A stretch of DNA of 64,000 nt from sequence record PZ476263.1. One strand, written 5' to 3'. Below are positions 13,471-56,420 of this stretch, in pieces. Position numbers and translations under genes: made by a program. The stretch comes from a phage. The first letter of the stretch is position 1. Every line of letters begins with the position of its first letter. The notes below the pieces were generated by a model that ran no database searches, was not told the DNA's origin, and saw only the letters and a list, made by a program, of their open reading frames with translations.

Positions 13471-13503
13471 GAAAATACCTATGAACCAGATCTGATCCAT
13501 AGG
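13471..13503 (-). terminator. Hairpin terminator after the aaRS-like gene
   Basis: cctatg...catagg stem enclosing the palindrome cagatctg, followed on the minus strand by TATTTTC. Confidence 0.5.
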
Positions 13504-13517
13504 CATTACATTTTTAT

Positions 13518-14102
13518 TCATTTTCGAAGAGAAGCTTTCTCTAAAACTAAGGATGTTCGAGGTTCAGCCAATCCTGTGCCATAAACATACCAATCACCGC
13601 TCAAATTTTGCCTTGCACCATAGGAACCGAGTTCAACTCCTCTGTATTTAACATCGTAACCGCCGTTTTCAGATACGATGACCATGTTATCAAAATCTAA
13701 ACCTAAGTGATTCAGGAGTTGAGTCATTTCTCTTGCCATATCTAAGCTCTCCATATTTCCTGACTTCTTATCCTTTGTGGGCTGGTAAAGCTCAAGTTTC
13801 AAAAATACATTTTGATGAATATCGTCAAGCTCGGCCTCGTCACGATAGCAAGGTGTCAGTGCCTGTAATTTTCCAGCAGGTAGGATTCCATCTTTTTCAA
13901 GCTGTAAAAAAGATTGCTCGGCGGAAGCAACAGCGCTTTTGCCGTTTGGCTGTTTAATTCTACCATCTTTAACGTCATCAGGGCAAGTTTTGGACATCAC
14001 ATCTTCATCAACATAACCTGGGACAGTTGTTTTTTCAAACCCTCTCTGCTCCCAAAAGTAAGAGGCTTCAAAAATAACCGCTAAACTAATTGGACTGTTC
14101 AT
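13518..14102 (-). CDS. Minimal class II aminoacyl-tRNA-synthetase-like catalytic core (194 aa), no anticodon-binding domain
   Basis: Motif-1-like FWEQRGFEKTTVPGYV. Motif-2-like LTPCYRDEAELDDIHQNVFLKLELY. Motif-3-like YGTGLAEPRTSLVLE. Confidence 0.4.
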   Translation of the reverse strand: MNSPISLAVIFEASYFWEQRGFEKTTVPGYVDEDVMSKTCPDDVKDGRIKQPNGKSAVASAEQSFLQLEKDGILPAGKLQALTPCYRDEAELDDIHQNVFLKLELYQPTKDKKSGNMESLDMAREMTQLLNHLGLDFDNMVIVSENGGYDVKYRGVELGSYGARQNLSGDWYVYGTGLAEPRTSLVLEKASLRK

Positions 14103-14111
14103 GTTATCTCC

Positions 14112-14618
14112 TTAGCGTTTACCGTTTTCAAATGCACGTTTGGTTATAGATGACATTTTGATCAGATCGTCTAATGTCACACCCTCATGGCTACTTTTTA
14201 GATAGCCTTCAATTGCACCGATCAAATCAGAAAGCTCTACCAGCTCCATGATCTTGCATCCTTGACTTTTGGCATCCAGTAATTCTTGAACCTCTTCAAG
14301 AATTTTTTCTGCTGTACCATATTGATGCTTTTCAATTTTAGCAAGATGATAACCGACAGATTTAGGATTTCGAGTGCTCGCTTCGAAGTTTCCACCAGCA
14401 ACATACCAATTCTTGTTGATAGTTACTATAAAAACTCCAATATCTTTTACATTGATACAGCTATAATCTTCACATGCCGACTTTGTTGTTTCAAATGGAT
14501 AATTGTCATCAACGCCTTTTTCTGCGACGAGATTCAACTTCAATCCGTGCATATCGAGCACACCGTTACGTCGTGCAACTTCCAGCAGATCTCGGTATTT
14601 GATTTGTTTATTTTTCAT
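14112..14618 (-). CDS. Protein with a C-terminal MazG/HisE-like all-alpha NTP pyrophosphohydrolase region (168 aa)
   Basis: GTAEKILEEVQELLDA...ELVELSDLIGAIEGYL...TKRAFENGKR fits the EExxE/D helical pattern. Confidence 0.4.
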   Translation of the reverse strand: MKNKQIKYRDLLEVARRNGVLDMHGLKLNLVAEKGVDDNYPFETTKSACEDYSCINVKDIGVFIVTINKNWYVAGGNFEASTRNPKSVGYHLAKIEKHQYGTAEKILEEVQELLDAKSQGCKIMELVELSDLIGAIEGYLKSSHEGVTLDDLIKMSSITKRAFENGKR

Positions 14619-14644
14619 TTTATCCTCTTTTTTTTTTGTTTAGA

Positions 14645-15130
14645 CTATGAAGCAGGCATACACCCCAACATTCTCCAACAATAATACCTTGTATTTTTAT
14701 CATGGTCAATATGATTTACGGGTCCTATCCTATTGCAACCGCAACATTTTTTCTCCTCTCTTAGATAATCTATGCTACAAGAGTGTGGGTGGTCGAAAGC
14801 ATCTCTCATCTCGAAACATAATTCAAGAAGCCACTTGAACCTCTTGGGGTAAGCAACTGAAAGCAATTCAAGTTCTTGAAAAGTAGGATTAACTGGGTCT
14901 TCAAAAAAGTCAAGCATGTCTTCATAAAGTATAACATTCTTAACTTTACCATTCTCAATTTCATAGGAGAAATCTTCTGTTAACCTTACCGTAACCTCTT
15001 TTACAAATAATTTATCTTCCTCATTTCTTCCCAGGTGGTCTTCGATCCATTTTATAACGAAGAATCTGCTTCTTTGAACATCCATGTTCAAAATTTCAAG
15101 CATATCTTCAATGCTTAAAGGTCTTTCCAT
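14645..15130 (-). CDS. DFFEDP-family paralog G with a Cys/His-rich tail (161 aa)
   Basis: EDMLDFFEDPVNPTFQELELLSVAYPKRF. C-terminus HPHSCSIDYLREEKKCCGCNRIGPVNHIDHD. Confidence 0.6.
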   Translation of the reverse strand: MERPLSIEDMLEILNMDVQRSRFFVIKWIEDHLGRNEEDKLFVKEVTVRLTEDFSYEIENGKVKNVILYEDMLDFFEDPVNPTFQELELLSVAYPKRFKWLLELCFEMRDAFDHPHSCSIDYLREEKKCCGCNRIGPVNHIDHDKNTRYYCWRMLGCMPAS

Positions 15131-16242
15131 ACCTGATCCTGTGCCTTTATAATCAAAGCCTCCGCAATTTTCAAATCACTTCGTTTAGGCAACTTTGTAG
15201 TCTTGTACAATTCACCACGGATCTCATTATCTTTCTTTTCTGCCCATTCAACAATCTCTTCGTAAGTTTTTGCACCGTTACGAATAGATAGTAGCTCTTC
15301 TGCATCTGGTCGCTTAACAATCACGTTACCAGTTCGAAGAATTTCTTCACCCATACGAAGAAGTCGTACAAGATGCATTGCATGTTTTGTGTCAAAACCG
15401 TACTTAACTTCAAGCTCGTGACGTTTTGCATTCCGGTTCTCTACCCATGTCCAATAATTACGATGTTTCTCTTTAGCTAAGTTGTGTTCTTGACGAAGAT
15501 ACTTAACGATAAACAGCGGACAGGTTGTTTTAACATCATCTCCGATTTTGTCGTATTCGAGAGCACGGATTGAACCATCCGGATTAAACATTGATGCACT
15601 TTCGAAATATGTCGACACAACACCATAAATATCTCCACCATAAGGGACCAACGTACAAAAATCATTCATGTTTCGTAATTTACGCGTGAAGACTTCATGG
15701 CTCATAACAGGATCGGATTGTAAATAACTTTGTACCAGTCGCATATAATCAAACTGGGTGGGCATTTCTTTCGGTTGCGGGTTGTTAATATGCTTATTGT
15801 GACCCTTGATCCGTTTTAACTGAGCCATAGCATAACCGCTGAAACGAAAAGCAACATTACTGTTCAACAGTTTGTGGAGATTCTCTTTAATGCCAAACCA
15901 AGCCTCATGCTCGTACAAAGTGGATTCTTTGTCTGTGAATCCTAATTCAATGATGTTTGGATTCATTTCTTTAAAAAGCGTCATGAATGTACCAAGTTCA
16001 TAAACCTTACCATCCTCTTCACCCTCAATGTTTAATTCGGTGACTGTTTTGAAAGGTGTACGAACAATATTTTCTTTTGCCACGAAGATCCCACGGATGT
16101 CTACATCACTTCCTTCCATGTTAGTCCCATAAGCATGTGATCCCGATAATGTCAGAAGAAGAACCTTCGCCACGTCTGGATGTTTTTCCAGTTTCTCTAC
16201 GATGCTTTTTACCTTTCCAGCACTCACAACAGAATTTGCCAT
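15115..16242 (-). CDS. Pol-beta-superfamily nucleotidyltransferase, RlaP-like (375 aa)
   Basis: LLLTLSGSHAYGTNMEGSDVDIRGIF is the GS-x10-DxD nucleotidyltransferase signature. RBS GGAGG. Confidence 0.6.
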   Translation of the reverse strand: MANSVVSAGKVKSIVEKLEKHPDVAKVLLLTLSGSHAYGTNMEGSDVDIRGIFVAKENIVRTPFKTVTELNIEGEEDGKVYELGTFMTLFKEMNPNIIELGFTDKESTLYEHEAWFGIKENLHKLLNSNVAFRFSGYAMAQLKRIKGHNKHINNPQPKEMPTQFDYMRLVQSYLQSDPVMSHEVFTRKLRNMNDFCTLVPYGGDIYGVVSTYFESASMFNPDGSIRALEYDKIGDDVKTTCPLFIVKYLRQEHNLAKEKHRNYWTWVENRNAKRHELEVKYGFDTKHAMHLVRLLRMGEEILRTGNVIVKRPDAEELLSIRNGAKTYEEIVEWAEKKDNEIRGELYKTTKLPKRSDLKIAEALIIKAQDQVWKDL

Positions 16243-16332
16243 TTATCCTCCAATCATTCTTATCACAGAGGCCAACCCAGTTGGCCTGTTTTATTTTTAT
16301 AAAGTATACGCAACTAGTGCAATCTTTTTTAC

Positions 16333-16722
16333 TTATAGGCATTGTACACCATAAAGAATCAACATAGCCACCATTGCGAGTACGTAAGTTAAGCTCAGAT
16401 AAATTTGATAACCTTTGATTGTTACTTCTTTTTCAAAAGATCGGTAGTTGCTATAAATAACACCCACCCAATGAACGGCTAAAATTGCATATCCCAGATC
16501 CGAACGTGCCCAATCTGCAAGTGAGTAACTACAATACATTGCCAGACCAGATAGAAACAGTCCAAAAATAATATTCATGGGACTTCGCTCTTTTACTTTC
16601 ACGACTTGATTTTCTAACTCTTTTGATTTTACTTTGTAATAACAACTCACTAAAACTTGGACAATTGCCCCGAGAATAAAGAAAGCAAGCAGAGCTACAT
16701 ATTGTGAAGTTGGTGCAGTCAT
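16333..16722 (-). CDS. Integral membrane protein (129 aa, about 4 TM)
   Basis: Several hydrophobic spans. Confidence 0.6.
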   Translation of the reverse strand: MTAPTSQYVALLAFFILGAIVQVLVSCYYKVKSKELENQVVKVKERSPMNIIFGLFLSGLAMYCSYSLADWARSDLGYAILAVHWVGVIYSNYRSFEKEVTIKGYQIYLSLTYVLAMVAMLILYGVQCL

Positions 16723-17108
16723 TAAATATCCCCTTCTAAAATATCGTTGATAAGATCTAAAATTTCAAGTTCTGAATTACCGTTGGACAAAATCATATTG
16801 AGTCTTTGCACAACTCCGTCTCTAAACATCACATGATTAATTTCCCCTTTACCTCTTAAACTACTCACCATCTGTTTGTATCGGATGTGTTCAGTATATT
16901 CTTCTTTAGACATCGTTGTCAATGCATTTCTGCTGTTTCTTAAAAATACTTTTCCAGTATCCCAATCAAACCCTTGCCGGACGTAATCAACCGTAACAGC
17001 TGAGTTAGCTCCTATGGTTACTGTCCCGCTCTCAACAGGGATAACCACTTCAAAGTCTTCATTCACCGTACCTAACAGATCTCTCAATTCTCTTACTTTC
17101 ATAGTCAC
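16722..17108 (-). CDS. Hypothetical protein (128 aa)
   Basis: Intact ORF abutting its neighbours. Confidence 0.6.
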   Translation of the reverse strand: MTMKVRELRDLLGTVNEDFEVVIPVESGTVTIGANSAVTVDYVRQGFDWDTGKVFLRNSRNALTTMSKEEYTEHIRYKQMVSSLRGKGEINHVMFRDGVVQRLNMILSNGNSELEILDLINDILEGDI

Positions 17109-17542
17109 CCCTTCAATTTCATCTTTTTAAATTCATATACAAACCTTTTTTCTTGTGGTGTAAGTTCTTCATTTCCGATAACCTCACCCTCCTTGTTTAC
17201 ATAGGTGTTCCAAAGCTTCTCTGGCAAAACAAAAGCGATTGCGGTAAGAGCGCCGTTCAATGCATGTTGTTCCTCATGAAAATATGTAAAGGGGATTTCA
17301 TCGGCAATAGGTAAAATAAATTCATCAGTAAAATCATACATTGCCTTCTGATACCCACCATTCAATAAAATCATAGTTTCATCTTTAGTTACCCACTGCT
17401 TCATTAATTTAACTCGGCAGTCGTCAGGATCAACATTTGTTGAATAATTGTGTACCAGCCGACATGCTGCATGGGCTGCTTGGATACCTGCCTGAATACC
17501 AGAAATGTATTGGTTAACAATCACGTACATACGGCTCTTCAT
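17105..17542 (-). CDS. Possible PTH2-like (peptidyl-tRNA hydrolase 2 fold) protein (145 aa)
   Basis: MYVIVNQ..SGIQAGIQAAHAA...LMKQWVTKDETMILLNG resembles the PTH2 pattern V.V.R.DL.MGKGK.AAQ..HAA...W......KVVL. Confidence 0.35.
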   Translation of the reverse strand: MKSRMYVIVNQYISGIQAGIQAAHAACRLVHNYSTNVDPDDCRVKLMKQWVTKDETMILLNGGYQKAMYDFTDEFILPIADEIPFTYFHEEQHALNGALTAIAFVLPEKLWNTYVNKEGEVIGNEELTPQEKRFVYEFKKMKLKG

Positions 17543-17553
17543 TTCACCTCCTC

Positions 17554-17898
17554 TTACTTAACACCAAAAAGTCGTTTAGAAAAACTGCCAGACTTAAACA
17601 AATAGTTGAACAAAACTATCAAAGAGTAAATAGTCCATACAAAAACATAAGTGAAAACTAAAAATCCCCAAGTGAAAGGCCAAAATAATGCATAACCTAC
17701 AGATTTAAACAGTAGAACATTATAATCGCTTTCCGTCAACTGGTCCTCTTTTAATTCTTTAAAGGCAACGATCGGTTCACCTGGTGGCATGATCAATTGG
17801 AAACCTTTTAGGCGTGCACGTACTAGAGCGATATAAAACACATTCAAAAATAATGCAATGGCAAAATAAGCCGTAACATACGTGGTGATATCATTCAT
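17554..17898 (-). CDS. Membrane protein, paralog of 17909..18235
   Basis: Shared FWPF(T/G)W(G/A)FL motif and TM layout. Confidence 0.6.
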   Translation of the reverse strand: MNDITTYVTAYFAIALFLNVFYIALVRARLKGFQLIMPPGEPIVAFKELKEDQLTESDYNVLLFKSVGYALFWPFTWGFLVFTYVFVWTIYSLIVLFNYLFKSGSFSKRLFGVK

Positions 17899-17908
17899 AT
17901 TCTTTCCC

Positions 17909-18235
17909 TCAATTATCTTTCATGTTAAATATTTTTCTTGCTAATTTTTCATTACCGATAGTAATTTGCCATAACCGGATTAGAAGAGTTAGCGCACAAA
18001 CTATCAGGTAGAACAAAATCAAGAAGGCCCACCCGAAAGGCCAAAATACTGCCATCACTAGCCACCCAATCATCAAGGCATTCCAATTAATCCTCCCCCT
18101 ATTTAAAGGGTCCAATAGATTACCACCATTCTTTGCAGGTAAAGGTATATAAAACCCACATTGCCGTAATTTTATTAAAATGAACCACACACCTGCACTT
18201 ATAATAACCCCTAAAAAATAAACTAATATGCTCAT
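17909..18235 (-). CDS. Membrane protein, paralog of 17554..17898
   Basis: AVFWPFGWAFLILFYLIV. Confidence 0.6.
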   Translation of the reverse strand: MSILVYFLGVIISAGVWFILIKLRQCGFYIPLPAKNGGNLLDPLNRGRINWNALMIGWLVMAVFWPFGWAFLILFYLIVCALTLLIRLWQITIGNEKLARKIFNMKDN

Positions 18236-19506
18236 ATTTCTTTCTCCTCCTCTTCTTTCAGTTTTAATTTTATCTCGGCAAGTGCCTTCTTAACATAACC
18301 TACTTTGAGGTCCCTTACTTTTGAACGAATAACTTCTGGTCGTCCTTTGAATTTTTCAGCGATATCTTTACTCTCTTCAGAGATAGCTACACTGTTTTGA
18401 GTAATCCCTGCCAGTGCTGAATATAATACTTCAACAGAGTCGTACTTGTCAAACATTTTTTCTTCCCCACGTCCTCGTGCATCACAAAGACAAGCCTCTG
18501 CAAACTTCCCAAAAAATTCTTGGTCTTTTTCTCCACGTAGCCGATAGATAAGGTCATACACGGAGGTTGCTTTCATATCTTTGATTCTATGCATACGTGT
18601 ATGTTCTTCGGTCACAATCATGGCAAGCTTTTTCCAACTATTTGGAACACCCATACGATCACAAAGTTCTTCAACAATCGGAACTCCGTATTGTTCATGA
18701 CCATGAAGCTTTTTATCTCTCCAATAAATACTCTTCCCTAGGTCATGACAAAGAACAGCCCACTTAACATCCGGCGGTGACATGATCTTTTGAGCGTAGT
18801 CCAAACACAAAAAGGTATGGATCAGTGCGTCACCTTCTGGATGGTGTTTCTTCGGCTGCTCAACATAATGAAGATTGAACAGCTCAGGAAATTCACCAAG
18901 TCCTGTCAAGAAGCGGAACATAAGGCTAGGCTTATTCTTCTCAGAGTTATCCATGAGACATTTATTAATCTCTGCCCACTTGCGTTCTTTTGGTAGGTAC
19001 TTAACTTGAGCATATCCATTAAAACATGCAGTTAAAGTATCAGGGTGGATACTGAAATCATCACCATATCGAGCATATAACCTTGCAAGTCGATAAATAC
19101 GCAAAGGGTCTTCTTGGAATGCAGTTTTGGAAACACACCGCAAAGATTTTTGCTTTAGGTGCTCAATACCTCCAAATGGATCAATATACTCACCTGTTTC
19201 GAGGTCTTTTGCAATAGCGTTGATAGTTAGGTCGCGTCTTTCCAAATCTTGTTCGATAGTCACATCTGGAGAAAACACAACTTCGAAATCATGATAGCCA
19301 GGTCCTGTTGATTTTTCAGTACGGGCCAGTGCATATTCTTCTTTTGTTAACGGATCAAGGTATACAGGAAACGCCGCCCCCACTTTTGTAAATCCCTTTG
19401 CGATCATTTCTTCATGGGTTGAGCCGACGACAACATAATCTCGGTCTTTACTTTCAACACCCAGAATCTCGTCACGTACTGCACCACCAACTAAATAGAT
19501 TTTCAT
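18232..19506 (-). CDS. cca: CCA-adding tRNA nucleotidyltransferase with a C-terminal HD domain (424 aa)
   Basis: N-terminus MKIYLVGGAVRDEILGVESKDRDYVVVG matches bacterial Cca. HD motif HHPEGDALIHT. Confidence 0.9.
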   Translation of the reverse strand: MKIYLVGGAVRDEILGVESKDRDYVVVGSTHEEMIAKGFTKVGAAFPVYLDPLTKEEYALARTEKSTGPGYHDFEVVFSPDVTIEQDLERRDLTINAIAKDLETGEYIDPFGGIEHLKQKSLRCVSKTAFQEDPLRIYRLARLYARYGDDFSIHPDTLTACFNGYAQVKYLPKERKWAEINKCLMDNSEKNKPSLMFRFLTGLGEFPELFNLHYVEQPKKHHPEGDALIHTFLCLDYAQKIMSPPDVKWAVLCHDLGKSIYWRDKKLHGHEQYGVPIVEELCDRMGVPNSWKKLAMIVTEEHTRMHRIKDMKATSVYDLIYRLRGEKDQEFFGKFAEACLCDARGRGEEKMFDKYDSVEVLYSALAGITQNSVAISEESKDIAEKFKGRPEVIRSKVRDLKVGYVKKALAEIKLKLKEEEEKEI

Positions 19507-19835
19507 ACTTTTTCCCCTCTTAAATTTACAGACCAGTCATCTACTTGATTTTTCCAGTCATCGTTTAATCTTCTAACCACTTTTTCACCACGTATGTACA
19601 TTAACAGATCCACAGGGTGCTTGTCAATAAAAGACACTTCATATTTTGGGTCATAACTCATGGAGAGCATTCGGATGATCCGGCTATGTTCTAAAGCCCC
19701 ATCTTCCTTTTCTACACTGATAACCTCATACCCTTCCCATGATTCTTTTATGTATATGATTCTACAAGCTACATCGTAGCCTCTTAACTCACCACGAGAA
19801 CTGAACACAGGTTTATATATTAAATGATATTTCAT
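19503..19835 (-). CDS. Hypothetical protein (110 aa)
   Basis: First ORF after the promoter at 19860-19887. RBS GAGGAG. Confidence 0.6.
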   Translation of the reverse strand: MKYHLIYKPVFSSRGELRGYDVACRIIYIKESWEGYEVISVEKEDGALEHSRIIRMLSMSYDPKYEVSFIDKHPVDLLMYIRGEKVVRRLNDDWKNQVDDWSVNLRGEKV

Positions 19836-19888: not shown

Positions 19889-19912
19889 AAAAAAGGCCAC
19901 CCGAAGGTGACC
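19889..19912 (-). terminator. Rho-independent terminator GGUCACC-UUCG-GGUGGCC-U6
   Basis: 7-bp stem, UUCG tetraloop and T6. The same 18-mer occurs at 61171 on the plus strand. Confidence 0.8.
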
Positions 19913-19919
19913 TTTAAAT

Positions 19920-20429
19920 TTAAGGATTTACCCAATAGAAGGGCTTATCCAATCCTAGTTTTCCCTGCTTATCCCAAACGAAATAGGCATAAGCTGCACC
20001 ATCTGTTTTACCGTTATCGGTAAACGATGGACGCTTTGAAAGAGTGATCAAGTGATCCACCGGATACTTTTTCCAAAACTCAACTCGCTTTGTACTCTCA
20101 AGAAAACCTAAACGAAGTAACATGATAATCACATCAGCATCTTCATGTGCTTTCTCTACAAACTCCTGAGCCAAACAGTAAGGAGGGTTCGTAATAATGC
20201 AATCTACACGATTGTATTTTGTAGAAAGGTAATCAACACCTTCACGAATCTCTCCCCACGCAGAACCGATAGGTAATTCATTGTAGAATCTTCCAGATGC
20301 TCGGCAAGGTTCCAGATATGTCCAGTCATTTCTAATCGGTACGATATCTAAAAGGCAATCAACTGCCCACTCCGGAGTTTCATAAAGATCATATGCATTT
20401 CGTTCTGCTTTCGGCTTCAACGCTGCCAT
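19920..20429 (-). CDS. DNA N6-adenine methyltransferase, small gamma-type (169 aa)
   Basis: Motif I-like LEPCRASGRF lies upstream of motif IV IITNPPY. Confidence 0.7.
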   Translation of the reverse strand: MAALKPKAERNAYDLYETPEWAVDCLLDIVPIRNDWTYLEPCRASGRFYNELPIGSAWGEIREGVDYLSTKYNRVDCIITNPPYCLAQEFVEKAHEDADVIIMLLRLGFLESTKRVEFWKKYPVDHLITLSKRPSFTDNGKTDGAAYAYFVWDKQGKLGLDKPFYWVNP

Positions 20430-21776: not shown

Positions 21777-22127
21777 CTAGATCGCAACTAAATATTTAAA
21801 TGTACCATTCTCTCGACTTAATTCAAAAATAACATAGAACCAAACATCATGCCCTGATTCGTTTTCGACTAATACGCGATCACCTTGTTTTAATTCTATT
21901 CCTGAAATGTACTCTTGAGATTCTGTAAAATAACGCCAACGAGACATTTCTTTAAACGAACAGATTAGTTCGCATTTCCCATCTACTGACCAAAGATCTT
22001 GGTTTACCCAATTACCAACCACAAACTCATTAGACTTCTTATACTTACCCAAGGAGTACACTGAATTTAATCGTTTAGCCTTTTCTGATTCCACGTTTAT
22101 TCTCCATGTTTTGTAAGAATGTTTCAA
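21777..22127 (-). CDS. Hypothetical protein (116 aa)
   Basis: Intact ORF overlapping the 3' end of the upstream gene. Confidence 0.55.
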   Translation of the reverse strand: MKHSYKTWRINVESEKAKRLNSVYSLGKYKKSNEFVVGNWVNQDLWSVDGKCELICSFKEMSRWRYFTESQEYISGIELKQGDRVLVENESGHDVWFYVIFELSRENGTFKYLVAI

Positions 22128-22698
22128 GGACGGACAAGTTCTCTTCTTTCCACAGATTCAGAGTACGTATCCCATGCTTTTTAGCCATATTCACTGCGGA
22201 GGCTGTTCCGCCTAAAGCGTTACCGCTTCTTGTTTCTTTAGCGTAGTATATAACAAACTTACTCGATGTCAAGTAAGCATTTGACAAATCTGCACCAAAT
22301 ACTTGGTGAATATTACGCTCATGCAATTTTCTAGCTCCTTGACTCAACCTCTCCCAGCCACCATGTACTTCTTTAACCCATTCCCATCGCATCTCTTTCA
22401 TTTCAGGATTTAATTTGTCCAAGGTATCTAAATCGATATTGTAAATATCGAGAAGTCCTTCACCACCTTTAAAATTTTTCCAAGGTACATAAATTTCAGC
22501 TATTGTTTTTGGTGATTGGGTCATATTGCAATCCTTATGGTATCTTTGAGCACCCCTTTGAAATGCTGCATCTGCACCATTTGCTCCACCGGATCTCAAT
22601 ACTAAGCCAATCCTTGCTAAACGATAACCTGTATCCTCCATTATGTCAATTACATTTGGAGGTGTTTCTCTTGACCCTATTCCTGTATAAGCTGCCAT
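22075..22698 (-). CDS. SLOG/DprA-like Rossmann-fold protein (207 aa)
   Basis: GIGSRETP...LRSGGANGADAAFQRGA...GGTASAVNMAKKHGIRTLNL. Confidence 0.45.
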   Translation of the reverse strand: MAAYTGIGSRETPPNVIDIMEDTGYRLARIGLVLRSGGANGADAAFQRGAQRYHKDCNMTQSPKTIAEIYVPWKNFKGGEGLLDIYNIDLDTLDKLNPEMKEMRWEWVKEVHGGWERLSQGARKLHERNIHQVFGADLSNAYLTSSKFVIYYAKETRSGNALGGTASAVNMAKKHGIRTLNLWKEENLSVLETFLQNMENKRGIRKG

Positions 22699-28548: not shown

Positions 28549-28890
28549 TCAATAATTATTTCTCAAAATTTGAATTCTTTTTGAAGCGAAAAACTCTTTA
28601 GCTCCCATAAACTTTTCAGCAGCTGAAGGATTGCTTGTATGAACAAACAGAAGCGTATCGTACAGTATTGGCTTTCCAAATGCAAGTTTTTCTTCCAAGT
28701 ATTCGAAACAACGATAACCTTCTAAAGAGTCTTCTCCGAGATCGTTATCAAAATGCCATTCTTTCACGTATCGATACATCTTATCTTTTCTGTCCATAAA
28801 CTTAAAAAATTCGTCAGAGTTTTTTAGCCAGACTGCATCTTCTTGATCATAATCTTTAGGATCTCTTAAATCATCAAGCCAAATTTTCAT
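28549..28890 (-). CDS. Receiver-like small protein (113 aa), possibly of the cREC (cyclic-phosphate processing receiver) type
   Basis: MKIWLDDLRDP...HFDNDLGEDSLEGY...VHTSNPSAAEKF. ATG at 28890 with a GGAGGA RBS. The family assignment is from memory only. Confidence 0.35.
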   Translation of the reverse strand: MKIWLDDLRDPKDYDQEDAVWLKNSDEFFKFMDRKDKMYRYVKEWHFDNDLGEDSLEGYRCFEYLEEKLAFGKPILYDTLLFVHTSNPSAAEKFMGAKEFFASKRIQILRNNY

Positions 28891-28974: not shown

Positions 28975-29166
28975 TTAATTATATTTTAATAGTATTCTCA
29001 ACATATCCTTGGCGATTGTCTTATTGTCTCGACAACCTGCAAGATTGTTTCTTATTGCAGCTGAGTAAACTTCTCCAGCCGAACCAGGGAACTTTTTACC
29101 AAAAACCTTTGCTGATTTTTCAAATTGCCAACGATGTAAAATAAACCACTTGATAGTTAATAGCAT
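28975..29166 (-). CDS. Hypothetical basic protein (63 aa)
   Basis: RBS AAGGAG. Lies between nrdA and the terminator. Confidence 0.5.
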   Translation of the reverse strand: MLLTIKWFILHRWQFEKSAKVFGKKFPGSAGEVYSAAIRNNLAGCRDNKTIAKDMLRILLKYN

Positions 29167-29211
29167 TCACTCTCCTTAAAAGCTCCCTAAAAAGGGGGCC
29201 TGTTTTACCAA

Positions 29212-44472: not shown

Positions 44473-44952
44473 TCAATAGTTATTGTAAATATCTTTCGCT
44501 TCTTCTCGTCGAGAATCCATAAGGATCTTTTCTTTAGCCAAAGAATCTTTTTTCAACTTGGCTTTCTTGTCAGATACCTTTTTCTTGATTGCATAGTACA
44601 ATACATCTCTTTCAACGTGGTTCATCCATTCGAGATCACCATTTACAAACAAAGTATCTCTCAAAACACCAGGCCACCTCTCAAAATATGTAACCCTGCT
44701 AGGATTCATAGAATCCACCAAAGTAAATTCCACTTCCCATGTATCAGGTGCATCATCATCTGAGTCTGGATTATCCGTGTAATAACCTGTGTGGATCGTG
44801 AACCAGCCAAGGTCATTGCGAATAGATCCGATTATCTTATCAGCAGGTGCTTTAACCATAATGTACTCGTAAACTTTGCAAATCACAATGTAAATCAGTA
44901 CAAATCCGATAGTAATGAAGATCCCTACAAAATCTGACAAAAACTCAATCAT
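44473..44952 (-). CDS. Membrane-anchored protein (159 aa)
   Basis: N-terminal TM FVGIFITIGFVLIYIVI. Confidence 0.55.
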   Translation of the reverse strand: MIEFLSDFVGIFITIGFVLIYIVICKVYEYIMVKAPADKIIGSIRNDLGWFTIHTGYYTDNPDSDDDAPDTWEVEFTLVDSMNPSRVTYFERWPGVLRDTLFVNGDLEWMNHVERDVLYYAIKKKVSDKKAKLKKDSLAKEKILMDSRREEAKDIYNNY

Positions 44953-46322
44953 TTCTTAGTCCTCTTAACCAGCGCTCGTAATGTCTCAAGAAGAGAATCG
45001 GCATGTTCAATAACTTCACCAAGGGTATTCGCTTTAGTCTTATCATGACGGATCTCAACGAACTTATAATTTAGTCGTGGTAAAAACAGAGACTTAAGAT
45101 CCTTATTCTCAGCATCTGTAATATCATTTGCCTTGATCGTGATAATCTGACCAATAAAATATTCCGGTGCTTTCTTACGTAAAGCGTCTGTCAGTCCTGA
45201 ACCTACACCAACTTCCAAAAGACCATCTCGTGTACGGCAAACAAGAGAACCGACAAGCGAAGGATCTTTTTTGTGAGGTAAGGTAGCAACAACCTCAAGA
45301 TCCACGTCGAATTCGTTCTTCAGCTTAATACCTTTCTTAGTCTTATTGTCACCCCAAGGCATGTTTGCCTCTTTCAAGACCGTACCTTCCTTCTTCTGTT
45401 GACGCATCTCGATGAAGTGGTCAATAGCCTCTTCAAGACTATCGATCTGACGACCACGGATCATCTTTAAATGAGAAGACTCATCCACATAGTTGACAAT
45501 ATTTTCAACCTGCTTACGGCGGTCTTTATATTTTTTCTTAGACTTACGTGCAATATACTCGTCCATAGAAACAACATCCCAAACAACCAAGCGTACCAAA
45601 TTAGGATCAATATTTTCAGGATCCTGGTTCAGATAGCCGTTACCGATCTCTCGTGGCTGAACTCCGTGTGGATAAGACAGATCAATAACTAAACCTTCCC
45701 CGTGCATAACAAAAGGACCATCAGAATTGGCTTTTTCTTTCAGGTTTTGCTCAAGTGAAGGAATACACCGGAAATTAAGCTCTTTCCCTGATCGTGAACG
45801 ATAAATGATCTGTTCAGGCCAAACCATAATGTCTGCATAAAGTCCGTCCATCTTCTCGTCGGAGAAAGCGCCCTCATAATCAAACTTGATCAACAGATCC
45901 TCTTTAAAAAGCGTATAACTTTGGTAAGGTGGCTCTGTGATCAGACCTTTCCACACCTTGTTTGTAAGAGTGGTCTGTACACCACAGTCGAGATCACGAT
46001 TTATAACTTTTAACAGAGTTTCCGGCTCAGAGCAAAGCTGAACAGTGTTGATCATTTCTTCACGGGCTGCATAGCCTGTAATTTTTCGACCGCAAACAAA
46101 TTTAACCAGATATCGGATCGAGTCAACAAGACTGTTATTGCCTTGGTGGAATGTTGATTCCATGACTTTCAAGCCACGGACATAAAAATTCAACTCTTTG
46201 GAATAGGTGACTTGGAATACATATTCCAGATCTTTATTATCTCGATTTGCGACCAAGATTGCTTCTTTCTCTTTTGTGGATCGGGTTGCTGCCAGTTGAT
46301 TGATAATATCTGTTACTTTCAT
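44949..46322 (-). CDS. lig: ATP-dependent DNA ligase (457 aa)
   Basis: Motif I EKMDG. Also HGEGLV, VVWDV and EGTVLK. ATG at 46322 with an AAGGAG RBS; the track start at 46430 is an upstream extension. Confidence 0.85.
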   Translation of the reverse strand: MKVTDIINQLAATRSTKEKEAILVANRDNKDLEYVFQVTYSKELNFYVRGLKVMESTFHQGNNSLVDSIRYLVKFVCGRKITGYAAREEMINTVQLCSEPETLLKVINRDLDCGVQTTLTNKVWKGLITEPPYQSYTLFKEDLLIKFDYEGAFSDEKMDGLYADIMVWPEQIIYRSRSGKELNFRCIPSLEQNLKEKANSDGPFVMHGEGLVIDLSYPHGVQPREIGNGYLNQDPENIDPNLVRLVVWDVVSMDEYIARKSKKKYKDRRKQVENIVNYVDESSHLKMIRGRQIDSLEEAIDHFIEMRQQKKEGTVLKEANMPWGDNKTKKGIKLKNEFDVDLEVVATLPHKKDPSLVGSLVCRTRDGLLEVGVGSGLTDALRKKAPEYFIGQIITIKANDITDAENKDLKSLFLPRLNYKFVEIRHDKTKANTLGEVIEHADSLLETLRALVKRTKK

Positions 46323-46332
46323 TTTGTCTCCT

Positions 46333-46656
46333 TTATTTTTTAATAACTCGAAGTCTTTTCGCCAACACCCAAGTCCCGCCTTGACTTTCAGGACGATTGA
46401 ACATTTCGATACCTTCCACTTCAACTTCATACCATTTGCGTATTTCTCCCGACTTGAGATTCATACTCAAATGTGGTGCATGAGGTTTCAATGTGCAATG
46501 CCAACCTGGTCTTATTGCAAACCCCCGTGTCGGGTGGTTCTCCGCCTCCATCCAAACATCTGGCTCAATCACCAATTTACGATTGATAAATAATGGTCCT
46601 ATTGTACCATCCTTTCTTACTCGAAACAACTTATATGCTTTGATCTTTTTAATCAT
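46333..46656 (-). CDS. Hypothetical protein (107 aa)
   Basis: Intact co-oriented ORF. Confidence 0.6.
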   Translation of the reverse strand: MIKKIKAYKLFRVRKDGTIGPLFINRKLVIEPDVWMEAENHPTRGFAIRPGWHCTLKPHAPHLSMNLKSGEIRKWYEVEVEGIEMFNRPESQGGTWVLAKRLRVIKK

Positions 46657-51064: not shown

Positions 51065-51140
51065 GGCCCTTTAGCTCAGTGGTTAGAGCAGGCGACTCAT
51101 AATCGCTTGGTCGCTGGTTCAAGTCCGGCAAGGGCCACCA
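51065..51140 (+). tRNA. tRNA-Met(CAT), elongator type (could be Ile2 if C34 is modified)
   Basis: Full cloverleaf folded by hand, G1-C72, anticodon loop ctCATaa, CCA encoded. Confidence 0.85.
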
Positions 51141-51157
51141 CTCAATAGTTTATTTAC

Positions 51158-51249
51158 AAGATCATTCAGTAATTAAGCGAATGCCGGAAGCAGAACCGGA
51201 TCAACAAATGCGTACGGGTGTCATCGCCACCTAGCAACTGAATGATCTT
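51158..51249 (+). ncRNA. Long hairpin: 13-bp perfect inverted repeat enclosing 66 nt
   Basis: aagatcattcagt (51158-51170) pairs with actgaatgatctt (51237-51249). Inner stem ccgg-N8-ccgg. Followed by TTTT. Confidence 0.5.
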
Positions 51250-51276
51250 TTAAATTCTCTTAACCTCATAAAATCC

Positions 51277-51305
51277 TTGACATAATAAGAAATTCCTGAT
51301 AACAT
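51277..51305 (+). promoter_or_regulatory. Promoter TTGACA-N17-TAACAT with a TGn extended -10
   Basis: -35 at 51277-51282 and -10 at 51300-51305. Confidence 0.55.
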
Positions 51306-51332
51306 CTCTATATCGACTTAATTGAGGTGCTT

Positions 51333-51707
51333 ATGCCTAAAGCTGAAATCGTTACTAGAAAACGGGGTCGGCCTACTACAGAGGAAAGTATCGCTATCAA
51401 CACCGAGAAGGCGATTCTTCATGCTCGTTCAGAGTTTGCAAGACTTACTCCTCAGGCGATTAAGACTCTGGAAGGTCTACTCACTTCCGGTACAGAGAAA
51501 GTTAAAGAAACTACTGCGAAGTATATTCTTGAACAGGCTGAAAAAGCTAACAATCTGTACACGATGGAAGATAATGAGGAAGATTTAGCGGGAGGTTCAA
51601 CTTCTGCGGATTCTGATACTCATAAAGGCCCTTCTGATGTATTTAAGGATGCAATTCCTCTTACTACTCAAATCAGAGAGTATAAAATTGCAGAAGGTGA
51701 AAACTAA
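51333..51707 (+). CDS. Hypothetical DNA-binding-like protein; weak small-terminase candidate (124 aa)
   Basis: RKRGRPTTEES N-terminus and an acidic tail. ATG at 51333 follows GAGGTG. Confidence 0.3.
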   Translation: MPKAEIVTRKRGRPTTEESIAINTEKAILHARSEFARLTPQAIKTLEGLLTSGTEKVKETTAKYILEQAEKANNLYTMEDNEEDLAGGSTSADSDTHKGPSDVFKDAIPLTTQIREYKIAEGEN

Positions 51708-51727
51708 AGGCTCTTAGGGGCCTTTTA
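51707..51727 (+). terminator. Rho-independent terminator
   Basis: Stem aaggctc/gggcctt with a 4-nt loop, followed by TTAT. Overlaps the stop codon. Confidence 0.55.
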
Positions 51728-51946
51728 TTAATAGTTCTTTTTAATGTAGTTGCTTGGTGTAATTTTTCGGCAGATGGCTGCAACCATCCTATCGATAACT
51801 CATAGTTAGTGCTGCAAACACTGGCTACCTTAAAGAGAATTTAACTCGTCGAATAAGGAAGATGCTGATCTCAAAGTGAGGTCACTTACCGCAAGGGGTG
51901 TGCATAGACTCCCGCTTCCGAATAGACTATGTGGCGAGATGTATTT

Positions 51947-52028
51947 GGGGACGTGGCAGAGCGGTCGAATGCGCCTGACTGTAAATCAGGTATCCCACAC
52001 GGTGGTTCGAATCCATCCGGCCCCACCA
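51947..52028 (+). tRNA. tRNA-Tyr(GTA)
   Basis: Anticodon arm cctga-ctGTAaa-tcagg, 10-nt variable region, T-arm ggtgg-ttcgaat-ccatc, one A-G mismatch in the acceptor stem, CCA encoded. Confidence 0.8.
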
Positions 52029-52282
52029 AATTAAGAAGCAGGGTCGCTACCTGCAAGTCGTCGGACTGAGATTCCCTGAATAAGACCCGACTTTAAGGCG
52101 TACAAATGTTCGGTTTAAAGTCCCTTATCTCACAGTCGAAACGGCGCATCCTATTCAGCCGTGATGTGATGTAATCACTGACCTCTTTGAAGGATCATGG
52201 CATCCTATACAAAAAAAAAACCTGAATAATTTAGGTTTTAATGCCTGGGGGTTCGTAGCCCTATTACTAAGAGGACTTAACT

Positions 52283-52492
52283 ATGTTTACTATTAAAATT
52301 ATTGATATCGATGGAAATGAGACGGGTGTTTCAACAAGGCACTACAGATGGTACTCAAAAATGAATATTTTTGATGTGGAGGGTGGAGAATCTGTTTCTG
52401 TACCACCAAAAAGTCGTGCTTATGTAATGAATGACAAAGGAATAACCATCGGTAGATACACAAATACAGCGGATCAACGCGTTCTTAATTAA
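52283..52492 (+). CDS. Hypothetical protein (69 aa) embedded in the tRNA island
   Basis: RBS AAGAGGA. Its stop lies 1 nt before tRNA-Gly. Confidence 0.55.
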   Translation: MFTIKIIDIDGNETGVSTRHYRWYSKMNIFDVEGGESVSVPPKSRAYVMNDKGITIGRYTNTADQRVLN

Positions 52493-52493
52493 A

Positions 52494-52568
<75 letters not shown>

Positions 52569-52667
52569 AACACATATCCATCTGACGCGTTTATGGGGTT
52601 GACCTGATCAATCTTCTCCTAATTTCGTGTGAAGACATCATGATTGTTGGGATGGATAAACTTATTT

Positions 52668-52742
52668 TGGGGATTAGCCAAGCGGTAAGGCATCGGATTT
52701 TGATTCCGACATTCACTGGTTCGAGTCCAGTATCCCCAGCCA
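52668..52742 (+). tRNA. tRNA-Gln(TTG)
   Basis: Acceptor tggggat/atcccca, anticodon arm tcgga-ttTTGat-tccga, T-arm actgg-ttcgagt-ccagt, CCA encoded. Confidence 0.85.
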
Positions 52743-52747
52743 ATTAA

Positions 52748-52824
52748 CGGTGTGTAGCGCAGCTTGGTAGCGCATCTGGTTTGGGGCCAGAGGGCCGTTG
52801 GTTCGAATCCAACTACACCGACCA
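52748..52824 (+). tRNA. tRNA-Pro(TGG)
   Basis: Acceptor cggtgtg/tacaccg, D-arm gcgc-agcttggta-gcgc, anticodon arm tctgg-ttTGGgg-ccaga, T-arm gttgg-ttcgaat-ccaac, CCA encoded. Confidence 0.9.
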
Positions 52825-53695: not shown

Positions 53696-54050
53696 ATGTC
53701 TGCTACATTCGCACCTGCGAGTCGCAAGCAACAAATGGTTCTCGAATCTACAGCACAGATTATGGTAATAGGTGGTGCAGCAGGATCAGGTAAATCATAC
53801 CTTTTACAGTTGATGCCTTTGCTTATTGTAAACGACCCTAAAACAGCCTGCATCATGTTTCGTCGTACTGTACCGCAGATTCGTGGACAAGGTGGCTTGT
53901 TTGACAAAGCTAAAGATATTTATAACCAGCTGCCTCCGGTAGTTAAGCCGAAGTTTAAAGAGAACGAGATGACTGCTACATTCCCTAACGGAGCAACCGT
54001 TAAGTGGCAGTCTATGCAACACGTAAGTGATAAATACGACATCCAGGGGT
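53696..54050 (+). CDS. terL: Terminase large subunit, exon 1 (Walker A)
   Basis: GGAAGSGKS. The ORF stops at TAA 54050-54052, right after KYDIQG. The exon ends on the U at 54050. Confidence 0.8.
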
Positions 54051-54960
54051 AAAAATTTCCTGCCCATCGTATCTTAATCGGTGAAACTCTGTTATAATAA
54101 GTACAGACAATACCGAGATCCATTACCTGAAATGACAGTAGGGAGATATGATGAAAAAATTTGAAATTGTTCCAAGCAAACCTGAATTTTCCGTAAGTGA
54201 AGACGGGCTGATTATGTTTACCTCTACAGGTACTATTCTTAAGCCGTATGTTGATAAGGATGGTTACCACAGGGTTAGAAATTTCTCTGCTGGAGGTAAA
54301 TCTCATTACATCGCCGTTCATCGCGCCGTTGCTGAGGTTTTTGTTAAAAACCCTAACCCAAAAGTGTTTAAGATTGTTAATCACTTGGATAATGTTAAGA
54401 GCAACAATCATAAAACCAATTTGGAATGGACAACCGAATCATTAAACCGAGTTCATGCAGTTCATGCCAACGGTACAGCATCTGTTAGAAACAATGTTAA
54501 ATTTACAGAAGGTCAAGTCAGAAAGGTGTGTGAACTTTTGAGCTTGGGCTATCGGATAGTTGATATTGTGAAACTTACAGGCGTTGATAGATTCAATGTG
54601 ATGGCAATTAGAAGCGGAAAATCTTGGGTTCAGATCTCTTGTGAGTTTGAAACTTTAAAAGTAGAAAGAAAAGATACACTGTCTGAAAAGACGATTCTTT
54701 GGATTAAAGACCAAATTAATCGCCAAAGGTCAGATGATGAAATACTTTTAATGTCGGTAAGACTTACAAAAGAAGAGCTTGAAAGAGCAAAGAAGATTAT
54801 TTCATTGATGGATTGTAACGACTAATGCTGATGAGTGTAAGCATGTAGGGCCAAGCGGTCCGAAACGATACGCCAAGGATGGAAGATATAGTCTGAACTA
54901 TATGGTGACATATAGCTGCTTAAGCAGGGTTAAGATTAGCGATCTTAATCGAACACAATG
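54051..54960 (+). mobile_element. Group I intron (td-like, IA2-type core) carrying an HNH homing endonuclease gene
   Basis: The 3' part gaagatatagtctgaactatatggtgacatatagctg...ggttaagattagcgatcttaatcgaacacaatg closely parallels the T4 td intron 3' end as I recall it. It starts after a U and ends in G. Confidence 0.7.
54148..54825 (+). CDS. Intron-encoded HNH homing endonuclease (225 aa)
   Basis: GYHRV...HRAVAEVFVKNPNPKVFKIVNHLDNVKSNNHKTNLEWTT (I-HmuI / HNH_3-like). RBS AGGGAG. Confidence 0.8.
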   Translation: MMKKFEIVPSKPEFSVSEDGLIMFTSTGTILKPYVDKDGYHRVRNFSAGGKSHYIAVHRAVAEVFVKNPNPKVFKIVNHLDNVKSNNHKTNLEWTTESLNRVHAVHANGTASVRNNVKFTEGQVRKVCELLSLGYRIVDIVKLTGVDRFNVMAIRSGKSWVQISCEFETLKVERKDTLSEKTILWIKDQINRQRSDDEILLMSVRLTKEELERAKKIISLMDCND

Positions 54961-55020: not shown

Positions 55021-55341
55021 AGCTGCCTCGTACAGTAATGTACGATGAGAAATTCTTGTGAATTGCTGGAAAATCCTTAGAGCTTGTAAAACTACAACAT
55101 GACCTGCAAAGGTGAGTGTGAATGTTAAAAATTTACAAGATTGGACGATCAGCCTCCAAGCCTCTTTACGAGAGGAAGGTTCAACGACTAGCCGAAAGGC
55201 GTAGATCATAAGCAAATGATGATCGAAGTGCAAGACCCCTACCTTATTGGTAGGGTGAAGATATAGTCTGATCTGCATGGTAACATGCAGCAGTGCTTGA
55301 GTGCACGGCAACGAACTTGCGATCCGTTGCGAACATAACAG
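55021..55341 (+). mobile_element. ORF-less group I intron (td-like core)
   Basis: gaagatatagtctgatctgcatggtaacatgcagc...gcgaacataacag mirrors the 3' core of intron 1. Internal ggttcaacgactagccgaaaggc. The alternative 3' end at 55329 is also in frame. Confidence 0.6.
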
Positions 55342-56420
55342 TAGAATACATGATGTCTCGTCTTCGTTCCAGTTCTTCTTACCCTTCACGAATGGTAATT
55401 AGTTGTAACCCTGATCCTGATCATTATCTTCGTAAGATGGTTGATTGGTATCTCGATAAGGATGGTTATCCTGATCCTACAAAGGATGGAGTCATTCGAT
55501 ATTTCGTTCGAGTTGATGACCAATACATGTGGGGCGAATCAGTAGAAGAGCTTAAGAAGCGGTACGGTAAGAAATGTAAGCCTGTTTCTTTTACATTTAT
55601 ATCTTCTACTATTTACGATAACCCACCAATGCTTATTAACAACCCAGACTATCTAGCACAGCTGGAAGGTCTTAATGAGGTTGACAGAGCAAGACTGTTA
55701 CACGGCAACTGGGATGCACGTCCTCAGGGTGCTAACTATTTTAAACGTTCTTTTCTTAAAGAGGTTGATGTTCTTCCTTTAGGTGTAGATAAGGTTAGAT
55801 CATACGATAAAGCAGGAACTGAACGTTCTACAGGTAATAAAACACCTGACTTTACAGCCGGAATCGGTGTGGCGAGAGATCAGGACGGAATTTATTATCT
55901 TTTTGGCGATTATTGTGAAGAGTTTGTTGATGAAGGTGATTGGTCTACTGGCAACCTTGGTAGGTTCTGTAAGAAAGCTGGTGAACGAGATACGATCATT
56001 ATGAAACAAGCAATTCATGACGGTGATGATGTTAGAATAATATTCCCTGTTGACCCTGGTCAAGCGGGTATTGCTGAATTCACTACATCTTCCCGAGAAT
56101 TATTAAATCAAGGATTCATTGTTGAGAAAGACCCAACTCCTGGTAACAAGAAGAAGCTTGTACGCTTCTCTCCGTTTGCTAACCTTGCTCAGAACGGATT
56201 TGTTAGGATTGTTAAAAAGTCTTTCCCTTTGGATACCTATGAAGCATTAATGAAAGAGCTTGAATCTTTCAATGGTGAAAGGTCAACAGGGACACGTAAA
56301 GATGACTGGGTGGATGCTATCTCAACCGGAATAAATTTCCTTGAGAAAACAGAAATAGTCAGGGCTGTTACAATACCACGACCTTCTGCCCCAACACTTT
56401 ATTCGAAGTATCGACGATAA
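55342..56420 (+). CDS. terL: Terminase large subunit, exon 3 (nuclease domain)
   Basis: ...L-EYMMSRLRSSSSYPSRMVISCNPDPDH.... Spliced total is 1494 nt, giving 497 aa. Confidence 0.7.

Follow-up and report, generated by a model that had tools for sequence, protein, structure and literature searches.

Bacterial immunity is now known to target transfer RNA to a major extent, and a number of recently discovered effectors hit its acceptor end; Cas12a3 immunity, for example, cleaves tRNA tails (PMC12851939). Overexpression of a CCA-adding enzyme counteracts the 3′-extending toxin MenT3 (PMC11541572), and peptidyl-tRNA hydrolase (Pth) reverses the acetylation of aminoacyl-tRNA by TacT (PMC9241777). 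Phage-encoded RlaP, CCA-adding enzyme, PTH2, and cREC (cyclic-phosphate-processing receiver) proteins have been proposed to represent an RNA-repair and ribosome-rescue toolkit (PMC7824862, section 3.4.9), and the idea that tRNA maintenance by phages serves counter-defence is thus already published (Burroughs and Aravind, 2016; Iyer et al., 2021, PMC7824862). RlaP owes its name to a link with RNA ligases and, in the section cited, is proposed to refill nucleotides before ligation; cREC is described there as linked to RNA ligases as well. Addition of one or two nucleoside monophosphates to damaged RNA 3′-OH ends by RlaP has been shown for Pseudomonas enzymes only (PMC12776372). Here, we describe a 6.3-kb block of 11 genes (19835..13518, minus strand) in a stretch of 64,000 nucleotides of phage DNA (PZ476263.1; this whole stretch is referred to as the window), which encodes relatives of several of these proteins. 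Our preferred reading, in which we have moderate confidence, is that the block juxtaposes two units: one comprising a CCA-adding enzyme with an HD domain (Cca), a PTH2-fold protein, and RlaP, which would serve tRNA 3′-end upkeep as a counter-defence, and an independent second one comprising a MazG-like protein and a minimal class II aminoacyl-tRNA synthetase (aaRS)-like core related to seryl-tRNA synthetase (SerRS), designated mini-SerRS here.

The window derives from a large myovirus (~140-150 kb; not a jumbo phage) related to the Vequintavirinae; its closest relative is Escherichia phage UPEC06, followed by Certreviruses such as CR9. As the phage DNA is too diverged (megablast with the window DNA gave short matches only, at 78-83%), comparisons were made at the protein level, where identities are 50-70%. 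The minus strand carries the window genes from about 2 to 48 kb, and all open reading frames (ORFs) named in an earlier note on this DNA, written from the letters alone, were confirmed on this strand where that note had placed them. Within the block, neighboring genes either share 1-16 nt or lie at most 90 nt apart; the block and its flanking hairpins read as follows.

19892..19915, minus strand: terminator-like hairpin (10-bp stem, then a T-run) upstream of the block, between a DNA methyltransferase gene (19920..20429) and the first block gene
19503..19835, minus strand: 110-aa protein, first block gene; its 3′ end overlaps the Cca start by 4 nt
18232..19506, minus strand: Cca, a CCA-adding enzyme of class II and of the E. 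coli Cca type, with an HD phosphohydrolase domain at the C-terminus (PF01743, PF01966, NF008137, phrog_2244)
17909..18235, minus strand: small, hydrophobic membrane protein (phrog_17692, 1.3e-36)
17554..17898, minus strand: paralogous small membrane protein (phrog_17692, 5.4e-07)
17105..17542, minus strand: predicted divergent PTH2-fold hydrolase (phrog_3668, 9e-40; PF01981 below cutoff; AlphaFold2 and Foldseek)
16722..17108, minus strand: 128-aa protein (phrog_12566), conserved in UPEC06 and CR9
16333..16722, minus strand: membrane protein (phrog_12739)
15115..16242, minus strand: RlaP-family Pol-beta nucleotidyltransferase (PF10127; phrog_388, 9e-78)
14645..15130, minus strand: 161-aa protein with a Cys-rich C-terminus (phrog_12113)
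14112..14618, minus strand: MazG/HisE-like all-alpha NTP pyrophosphohydrolase domain (aa 88-168, nt 14112..14357) plus a lineage-specific N-terminal domain
13518..14102, minus strand: mini-SerRS, a minimal class II aaRS catalytic core that comes nearest to SerRS in sequence as well as in structure (phrog_4806)
13474..13507, minus strand: terminator-like hairpin (15-bp stem), 10 nt past the stop codon of the aaRS-like gene

Clustering of the genes exceeds chance for part of the block, being conserved in relatives and partly recurring in unrelated phages. UPEC06, CR9, Seu621 (Mydovirus), and KE23 (Seunavirus) share the gene order Cca, PTH2-like, RlaP with the window; among the Vequintavirinae compared, RlaP is followed by the MazG-like and aaRS-like genes in the window, UPEC06, and CR9 only. 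UPEC06 and CR9 also have an ortholog of the 110-aa protein (no Pfam or NCBIfam match) before Cca, and the small membrane protein at 17909..18235 represents a lineage-specific insert between Cca and the PTH2-like gene. Of 58 IMG/VR viral loci surveyed around the aaRS-like gene, 56 encode a MazG-like domain, always on the strand of that gene, with a gap of ≤60 nt in 39 loci and ≤600 nt in 53; Cca, RlaP, and the PTH2-like gene were found nearby in only five, seven, and two loci, respectively, nearly all of them Certrevirus-like. No other neighbor cluster was present in more than 5 of the 58 loci, and thus no third recurrent partner of the pair was found in this survey. The aaRS-like gene also occurs without Cca, RlaP, or PTH2 nearby in phi92, Acinetobacter phage KARL-1, Caulobacter phage CcrPW, and Microcystis phage Ma-LMM01. 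In these phages the MazG-like domain is encoded immediately upstream (phi92 and CcrPW), two genes upstream (KARL-1), or as a C-terminal fusion (Ma-LMM01). In-frame fusions of mini-SerRS and the MazG-like domain were present in loci L135, L148, and L149, in Ma-LMM01, and in nine of the top 150 family representatives.

Assignment of Cca as a full-length CCA-adding enzyme with an HD domain, already made in the earlier note, was borne out by matches above the Pfam cutoffs for both the PolyA_pol head (PF01743, 1.9e-19) and HD (PF01966, 8.6e-07), as well as by a match to phrog_2244 at 3e-130. The protein also aligned with 386 of the 409 positions of NCBIfam NF008137 ("multifunctional CCA addition/repair protein"; 2.8e-112); since its score of 375.5 bits falls below the equivalog cutoff of 451, we consider it a diverged phage homologue rather than an equivalog under the NCBI rule. 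The translation shows GGAVRD, DRD, ERRD (RRD), EDPLR, HHPEGD, and CHDLGK, representing the motifs of catalysis and CCA specificity (GGxVRD, DxD, RRD, and EDxxR) and the HD dyad. Architecture (two domains) and motifs are those of the multifunctional Cca of E. coli; the HD-domain activities of the window protein are putative. The tRNA island at 51-53 kb that had been noted previously was found to consist of five genes.

51065..52824, plus strand: tRNA island with Met, Tyr, Gly, Gln, and Pro tRNA genes (five tRNAs)

All five genes encode the 3′ CCA genomically, after the discriminator base, so the phage Cca is not needed for their maturation, which favors a role in repair. Next to the island, a sixth tRNA-like element (50967-51045, plus strand) presented a weak Rfam match (35.8 bits) and was missed by ARAGORN; by eye, its anticodon loop carries UCU, its extra region is long, and CCA does not follow it, and the element may represent a degenerate or unusual tRNA-Arg.

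The PTH2-like call of the earlier note stood with regard to the fold, but not with regard to membership of Pfam PF01981. Foldseek with an AlphaFold2 model of the protein (built with 42 homologues; predicted local distance difference test score [pLDDT] 93.6) gave ten best PDB matches that were all Pth2/Bit1 (probability 1.0; E 2.4e-5 to 7.9e-4), while the sole PDB match of the family profile was 1xty (Sulfolobus Pth2) at E = 0.66. On the basis of this model, the protein is a predicted divergent PTH2-fold member rather than a PF01981 member by the curated rule. Compared to archaeal and eukaryotic Pth2 (PF01981; 1xty, 2zv3, 1q7s), the fold match reaches a template-modeling (TM) score of 0.65-0.73 on the target, with an identity of 11-16% to the phage protein; the GxxAAQxxHA-like helix motif is shared (GIQAAHA in the window protein), but the latter is longer (145 aa with a C-terminal extension vs. 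116-120 aa) and its family has invariant motifs of its own (W50, LNGG, and EE...LNGALT). Pth2 catalytic residues are Lys18 and Asp86 (S. solfataricus numbering); the weak 1xty alignment, when extended by hand, would put an invariant Glu90 at the Asp86 position and a variable residue (Q/H/A) at the Lys18 position.

Among cultured phages outside the Vequintavirinae, the PTH2-like gene is found directly after Cca, and overlapping it, in Rheinheimera phage Barba8S, Vibrio phage SRILMA, and Vibrio phage 495E54-1 (where RlaP comes next), and it adjoins Cca in Vibrio phage 11895-B1; jumbo phage RsoM2USA is an exception to this adjacency. Recurrence of the Cca-then-PTH2-like pair suggests that unblocking of A76 and rebuilding of CCA are coupled. 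We had expected a universal linkage, which was downgraded to a recurrent one after a survey of 80 environmental IMG/VR loci (6-kb radius; 55 lineages at 60% identity) found Cca within 6 kb in 15 loci only, and RlaP in 12. In another 12 loci (L028, L030-L032, L037, L039, L044, L049, L052, L055, L056, and L091), the PTH2-like gene has within 6 kb a gene for a Thg1-family enzyme (PF04446, 1e-26), without Cca or RlaP neighbors. Thg1 is a 3′-5′ polymerase that repairs tRNA 5′ ends, and these neighborhoods suggest alternative tRNA-end repair partners for the PTH2-like protein. Overall, Cca, RlaP, or Thg1 is present within 6 kb in 28/80 loci and 17/55 lineages (60% identity), and tRNA genes in 18/80 loci. 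Because Cca is present in only 443 of 50,697 phage records (<1%), tRNA-end nucleotidyltransferases are strongly enriched near the PTH2-like gene.

RlaP, likewise recognized in the earlier note, matched PF10127 with 59.4 bits (cutoff 23; E = 5.7e-16), and its translation carries the Pol-beta active-site motif G[GS]...DxD as GS...DVD (LSGSHAYGTNMEGSDVDIRG); matches to NTP_transf_2 and Polbeta were weak. That note had seen no RNA ligase or polynucleotide kinase, and our searches agree: no Pfam domain of RNA ligase, RtcB, or polynucleotide kinase was found in a scan of the window ORFs that reach 60 aa, all but five of them (three for ribonucleotide reductase and two for small membrane proteins), and the sole ligase found in the window is an ATP-dependent DNA ligase (44949..46430). 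Searches by tblastn with Rnl2 and the phosphatase of the related phage SSBI34 and with an Rnl1-like protein from SRILMA detected no homologues in the window or in the 143-kb UPEC06 record. In SSBI34, an Rnl2 ligase (PF09414, 1.7e-9) is encoded in the replication module, far from the Cca and RlaP genes of that phage; this protein of 469 aa has an N-terminal extension of ~120 aa, and its gene overlaps that of a 168-aa "putative phosphatase" (L153 19926-21834; SSBI34 107925-109833) with no Pfam match. At the syntenic spot in UPEC06, just a fragment of the Rnl2 N-terminal extension is left. Homologues of Rnl2 are common in Seunavirus and Mydovirus, far from RlaP, and Pectobacterium Certreviruses are absent among the matches listed; Certrevirus papers list a DNA ligase only. 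Because related genera carry Rnl2 elsewhere in the genome, a window free of RNA ligase is uninformative about the phage group as a whole. In the lineage of the window and UPEC06, genome content suggests that RlaP probably works without a ligase, as would suit an enzyme that acts at 3′ ends and not in the rejoining of cut anticodon loops. A further gene of the proposed toolkit, suspected in the earlier note to be receiver-like and possibly of the cREC type, was confirmed as such 9 kb from the block.

28549..28890, minus strand: cREC protein (PF20274, 5.6e-15; 56.2 bits vs. a cutoff of 27)

The UPEC06 ortholog of this protein (L154 4975-5316, UPEC06 28975-29316) consists of no more than a cREC domain of 113 aa but bears the annotation "RNA ligase 1 and tail attachment protein", which was probably transferred from cREC-RNA ligase fusions.

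The second unit consists of the last two genes of the block, and the assignments previously suggested for them were upheld, with qualifications. Mini-SerRS (194 aa) is nearly all catalytic core; it matched phrog_4806 at 3e-55 and no Pfam aaRS family, and presented a score of 21 bits against TIGR00414 serS, thus not reaching the cutoff of 301. A profile of 40 mini-SerRS sequences matched SerRS catalytic domains at 1e-5, with SAEQSF aligning with the TAE motif, TPCYRxE with motif 2, and FLKLE with QFDKVE, and a model with a pLDDT of 94.1 gave catalytic domains of pyrrolysyl-tRNA synthetase (PylRS) at 1e-10 with Foldseek. The class II fold is present, and even very distant homologues all retain the arginines of motifs 2 and 3; compared to SerRS, the motif 2 loop is shortened in the alignment. 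No tRNA-recognition module (i.e., N-terminal coiled-coil arm, tRNA-binding arm, or anticodon-binding domain) was found in the 194 aa. The MazG-like protein matched phrog_6408 at 2e-37; residues 88-168 matched PRA-PH PF01503 below the cutoff (19.4 bits vs. 21.3; E = 1.5e-3), but the metal-binding motif EExxE...ExxD is conserved at ≥90% in 56 MazG-like domains (consensus EE..E..dA ... ELsDlyG) and reads EEVQELLDA and ELSDLIGA in the window protein. Since the adenylate-forming residues and the MazG metal motif are conserved, both enzymes are probably active, and the fusions argue that they act jointly.

Mini-SerRS represents a large and well-delimited family, with 1,433 clusters (50% identity) at E ≤ 1e-10 among 1.84 billion representatives, most of them 175-200 aa long. 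Some members carry additional domains: the CcrPW protein has an RNA polymerase alpha-CTD (PF03118, 8e-6) fused at its N-terminus, a gene for a YqeY domain (PF09424, 5e-7), which has no counterpart in the window, adjoins the pair in phi92, and some members have Cys-rich tails. These accessories hint at a nucleic-acid substrate. The Cys-rich tail (…CGGxPRCCP) of a Certrevirus-like ortholog (L094 4930-5490) of the 161-aa block protein matches residues 210-235 of P0068, a 235-aa aaRS-like protein (48% over 29 aa; pairwise E = 7e-5); the tail of the window protein itself is diverged and gave no significant BLAST match to aaRS-like protein tails. Fused mini-SerRS and MazG-like domains are also present on IMG/VR GVMAG (giant-virus) contigs (L148 126-965 and L149 2097-3023); the cassette may extend beyond phages, or these contigs may be misbinned. 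Public records label mini-SerRS as "histidyl" or "seryl tRNA synthetase". One paper interprets it as a true serine-tRNA ligase, and a second reports MazG genes g118/g119 and, with no link drawn to them, "SerRS" g121 for a CbK-like phage; no functional description of the pair was found.

On these comparisons, the first unit most likely serves to preserve functional tRNA acceptor (3′) ends in the infected cell, and its likely purpose would be to offset host toxins and immune effectors that act at the tRNA 3′ end, such as MenT/AbiEii-type nucleotidyltransferases, Cas12a3-like tail nucleases, and TacT-type acetyltransferases. Cca would rebuild trimmed or aberrantly extended CCA ends, with the HD domain able to clear phosphorylated ends; the PTH2-fold enzyme would strip a peptidyl or N-blocked aminoacyl group from A76, releasing the 3′-OH; and RlaP would put one or two nucleotides onto damaged RNA 3′-OH ends. 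The second unit would be a self-contained two-enzyme cassette that moves between phage genomes alone. Its mini-SerRS core, having kept the ATP-binding arginines and SerRS-like motifs, probably makes an aminoacyl-adenylate, possibly with serine, and the MazG-like partner, having kept its metal-binding motif, probably hydrolyzes a nucleoside-polyphosphate bond. That this cassette is an unrecognized two-component system of large phages, and possibly of giant viruses, with new chemistry is a speculative proposal to which we give a fairly low probability; such chemistry might concern the 3′-terminal ribose of tRNA, undoing toxin-made blocks, or the making or destroying of an aminoacyl-nucleotide signal. 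If true, mini-SerRS would also rank as the smallest of the natural class II synthetase-like enzymes that have a dedicated partner.

Several points weigh against the two-unit reading or its parts. The reading derives from comparison of sequences, structures, and gene neighborhoods, and synteny of the first unit within the Vequintavirinae may reflect common descent alone. Tight gene packing is typical of phage early regions generally, and a promoter scan gave no promoter-like sites above chance in the block region; the flanking hairpins and the tight packing are compatible with a single transcription unit but no proof of it, so co-transcription of the block is a suggestion. The PTH2-like protein scored only 16 bits against PF01981 (cutoff 23; E = 0.014), and the Lys18 equivalent is not conserved in the hand alignment, which indicates that its substrate may differ; moreover, neither Cca nor RlaP is found near 65 of the 80 PTH2-like loci, and the pairing is therefore not obligatory. 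Finally, the association with an RNA ligase that is normal for RlaP, according to the section of PMC7824862 cited above, was found neither in the window nor in UPEC06.

The earlier note had suggested that the enzymes might form a single route for tRNA 3′-end and anticodon damage, with end-healing by the HD domain, CCA restoration, addition by RlaP, and recycling of stalled peptidyl-tRNA as one possible sequence; the route weighed here comprises all four enzymes and MazG, with recycling by PTH2 and recharging by the aaRS-like enzyme as its last steps. Co-location in one operon-like block, the RNA- or tRNA-related nature of all the domains, and the same gene order in UPEC06 and CR9 speak for this route, but the tie of the aaRS-like gene to MazG, together with its rarity near the other three genes (see the 58-locus survey above), marks the last two genes as a separate cassette, and Seu621 and KE23 have Cca, PTH2-like, and RlaP genes without an aaRS-like gene nearby. 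Anticodon repair lacks a ligase or kinase to reseal the break in both the window and UPEC06, no evidence was found for the proposed reaction order, and we regard the single route as improbable. What stood of that proposal is tRNA maintenance as a likely counter-defence, which is in line with the toolkit section of PMC7824862 and with the Cca/PTH2-like/RlaP neighborhoods, minus the aaRS-like gene, which belongs elsewhere. The same neighborhoods could be explained by housekeeping, with a phage that has its own tRNAs boosting late translation and using CCA repair and peptidyl-tRNA recycling for normal turnover and ribosome drop-off, with no host attack involved. Consistent with this, tRNA genes are found near ~22% of both the PTH2-like and the aaRS-like loci, genome papers state that phage Cca simply influences the tRNA pool (PMC7344957), PMC9769974 has in its reference list Morse and Deutscher (1976) on a physiological role of host tRNA nucleotidyltransferase in phage infection, and E. 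coli Cca serves the repair of normal tRNA end turnover (PMC11541572). However, Cca and Pth1 are already supplied by the host, RlaP prefers damaged RNA, and cREC, RlaP, and Thg1 neighbors are hallmarks of conflict-related RNA repair; in addition, rV5 has no Cca gene, and such a patchy accessory distribution is typical of counter-defence genes. We thus consider housekeeping rather unlikely.

For the cassette, the proximity of the 3′-end enzymes in the window invites an explanation in which it would target the tRNA 3′ end too: the core would dock CCA, in the manner of class II synthetases, while the MazG-like protein removes a pyro- or polyphosphate block of the CapRel/toxSAS type, or the core would re-esterify the end. 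Nucleic-acid-binding accessories (alpha-CTD in CcrPW and YqeY in phi92), the Cys-rich tails of some members, tRNA arrays within 6 kb of the aaRS-like gene in 13 of the 58 loci, and an apparent HD-type small alarmone hydrolase encoded by UPEC06 fit such a role. However, the proposal is purely speculative, and no biochemical precedent is known; the conserved adenylate-forming residues argue for amino-acid activation over mere docking, MazG enzymes release pyrophosphate from NTPs and are not known to act on 3′-pyrophosphorylated RNA, and no tRNA-repair neighbor of the pair is recurrent. We therefore find this explanation very doubtful. Small alarmone hydrolases reverse toxSAS action on tRNA; the UPEC06 gene concerned (187 aa, HDVIEDT motif; L155 44229-44792, UPEC06 118229-118792) is annotated "GTP pyrophosphokinase", looks like a hydrolase of this kind rather than a synthetase, and has no homologue in the window.

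Three other observations were made in the window. The large terminase gene (plus strand) is apparently split into an N-terminal part (53696..54052) and the rest (55293..56420); the sequence between these parts contains an ORF for a homing endonuclease (HNH/NUMOD4-like, 54148..54825) and a group I intron at full length (RF00028, 54986..55290, 78.7 bits). Adjacent paralogs at 3923-5065 and 5075-6325 (minus strand; 380 and 416 aa) contain RCC1-like beta-propeller repeats (PF25390, 1.8e-23 and 2.6e-09, below the family cutoff), and a short related ORF is located at 7124..7429. A 207-aa protein (22075-22698, minus strand) has an N-terminal GIGSRETP motif and a weak DprA/DNA_processg_A match (PF02481, 3.3e-3); relatives have orthologs whose annotations read DprA-like or "DNA processing protein".

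Returning to the two-unit reading, the first unit resembles several described systems. The T4 PseT (Pnk)/Rnl1 pair represents a phage answer to tRNA damage, as proposed here for the first unit, and T4 also has an RlaP (NrdC.11); T4 Pnk/Rnl1 reseals anticodon loops, whereas the predicted chemistry of the window acts on 3′ ends, without Pnk or RNA ligase. PcnA against MenT3 and Pth against TacT show that the same enzyme classes reverse toxin damage at the acceptor end; these are host enzymes acting against the host's own toxins, whereas a phage-encoded equivalent is what we infer here. A phage block of 3′-end enzymes alone, without a ligase, would be a natural counter-measure to effectors that hit this end. 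The closest counterpart is the RNA-repair and ribosome-rescue toolkit (Burroughs and Aravind, 2016; PMC7824862), which, as presented in the section cited, shares with the window RlaP, the CCA enzyme, PTH2, cREC, phage tRNAs, and the proposed purpose. In that section, however, RlaP tracks RNA ligases, whereas the window and UPEC06 have neither RNA ligase nor kinase, and the direct Cca-then-PTH2-like pair is not described in it; furthermore, the phage studied here, at ~140-150 kb, is no jumbo phage, and its PTH2-like protein represents a divergent family that falls short of the Pfam cutoff. The second unit can be compared to the amino acid:carrier protein (aa:CP) ligases, truncated SerRS homologues such as Bll0957 (PDB 3mey), which are ~300 aa long, compared to 194 aa for the phage mini-SerRS, and share 8% identity with it; these ligases act on carrier proteins, whereas mini-SerRS has no carrier-protein gene nearby and an obligate MazG-like partner instead. 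Recognition of mini-SerRS as a truncated core locked to this partner corrects the "histidyl" and "seryl" synthetase annotations and delimits a tractable subject that occurs in hundreds of cultured phages. Overall, the locus differs from the published toolkit in the absence of ligase and kinase, in its focus on the 3′ end, in a sub-threshold PTH2-fold family paired with Cca or Thg1, and in the MazG-like/mini-SerRS cassette, which is a more interesting lead than the 3′-end unit and the part of the block most worth following up.

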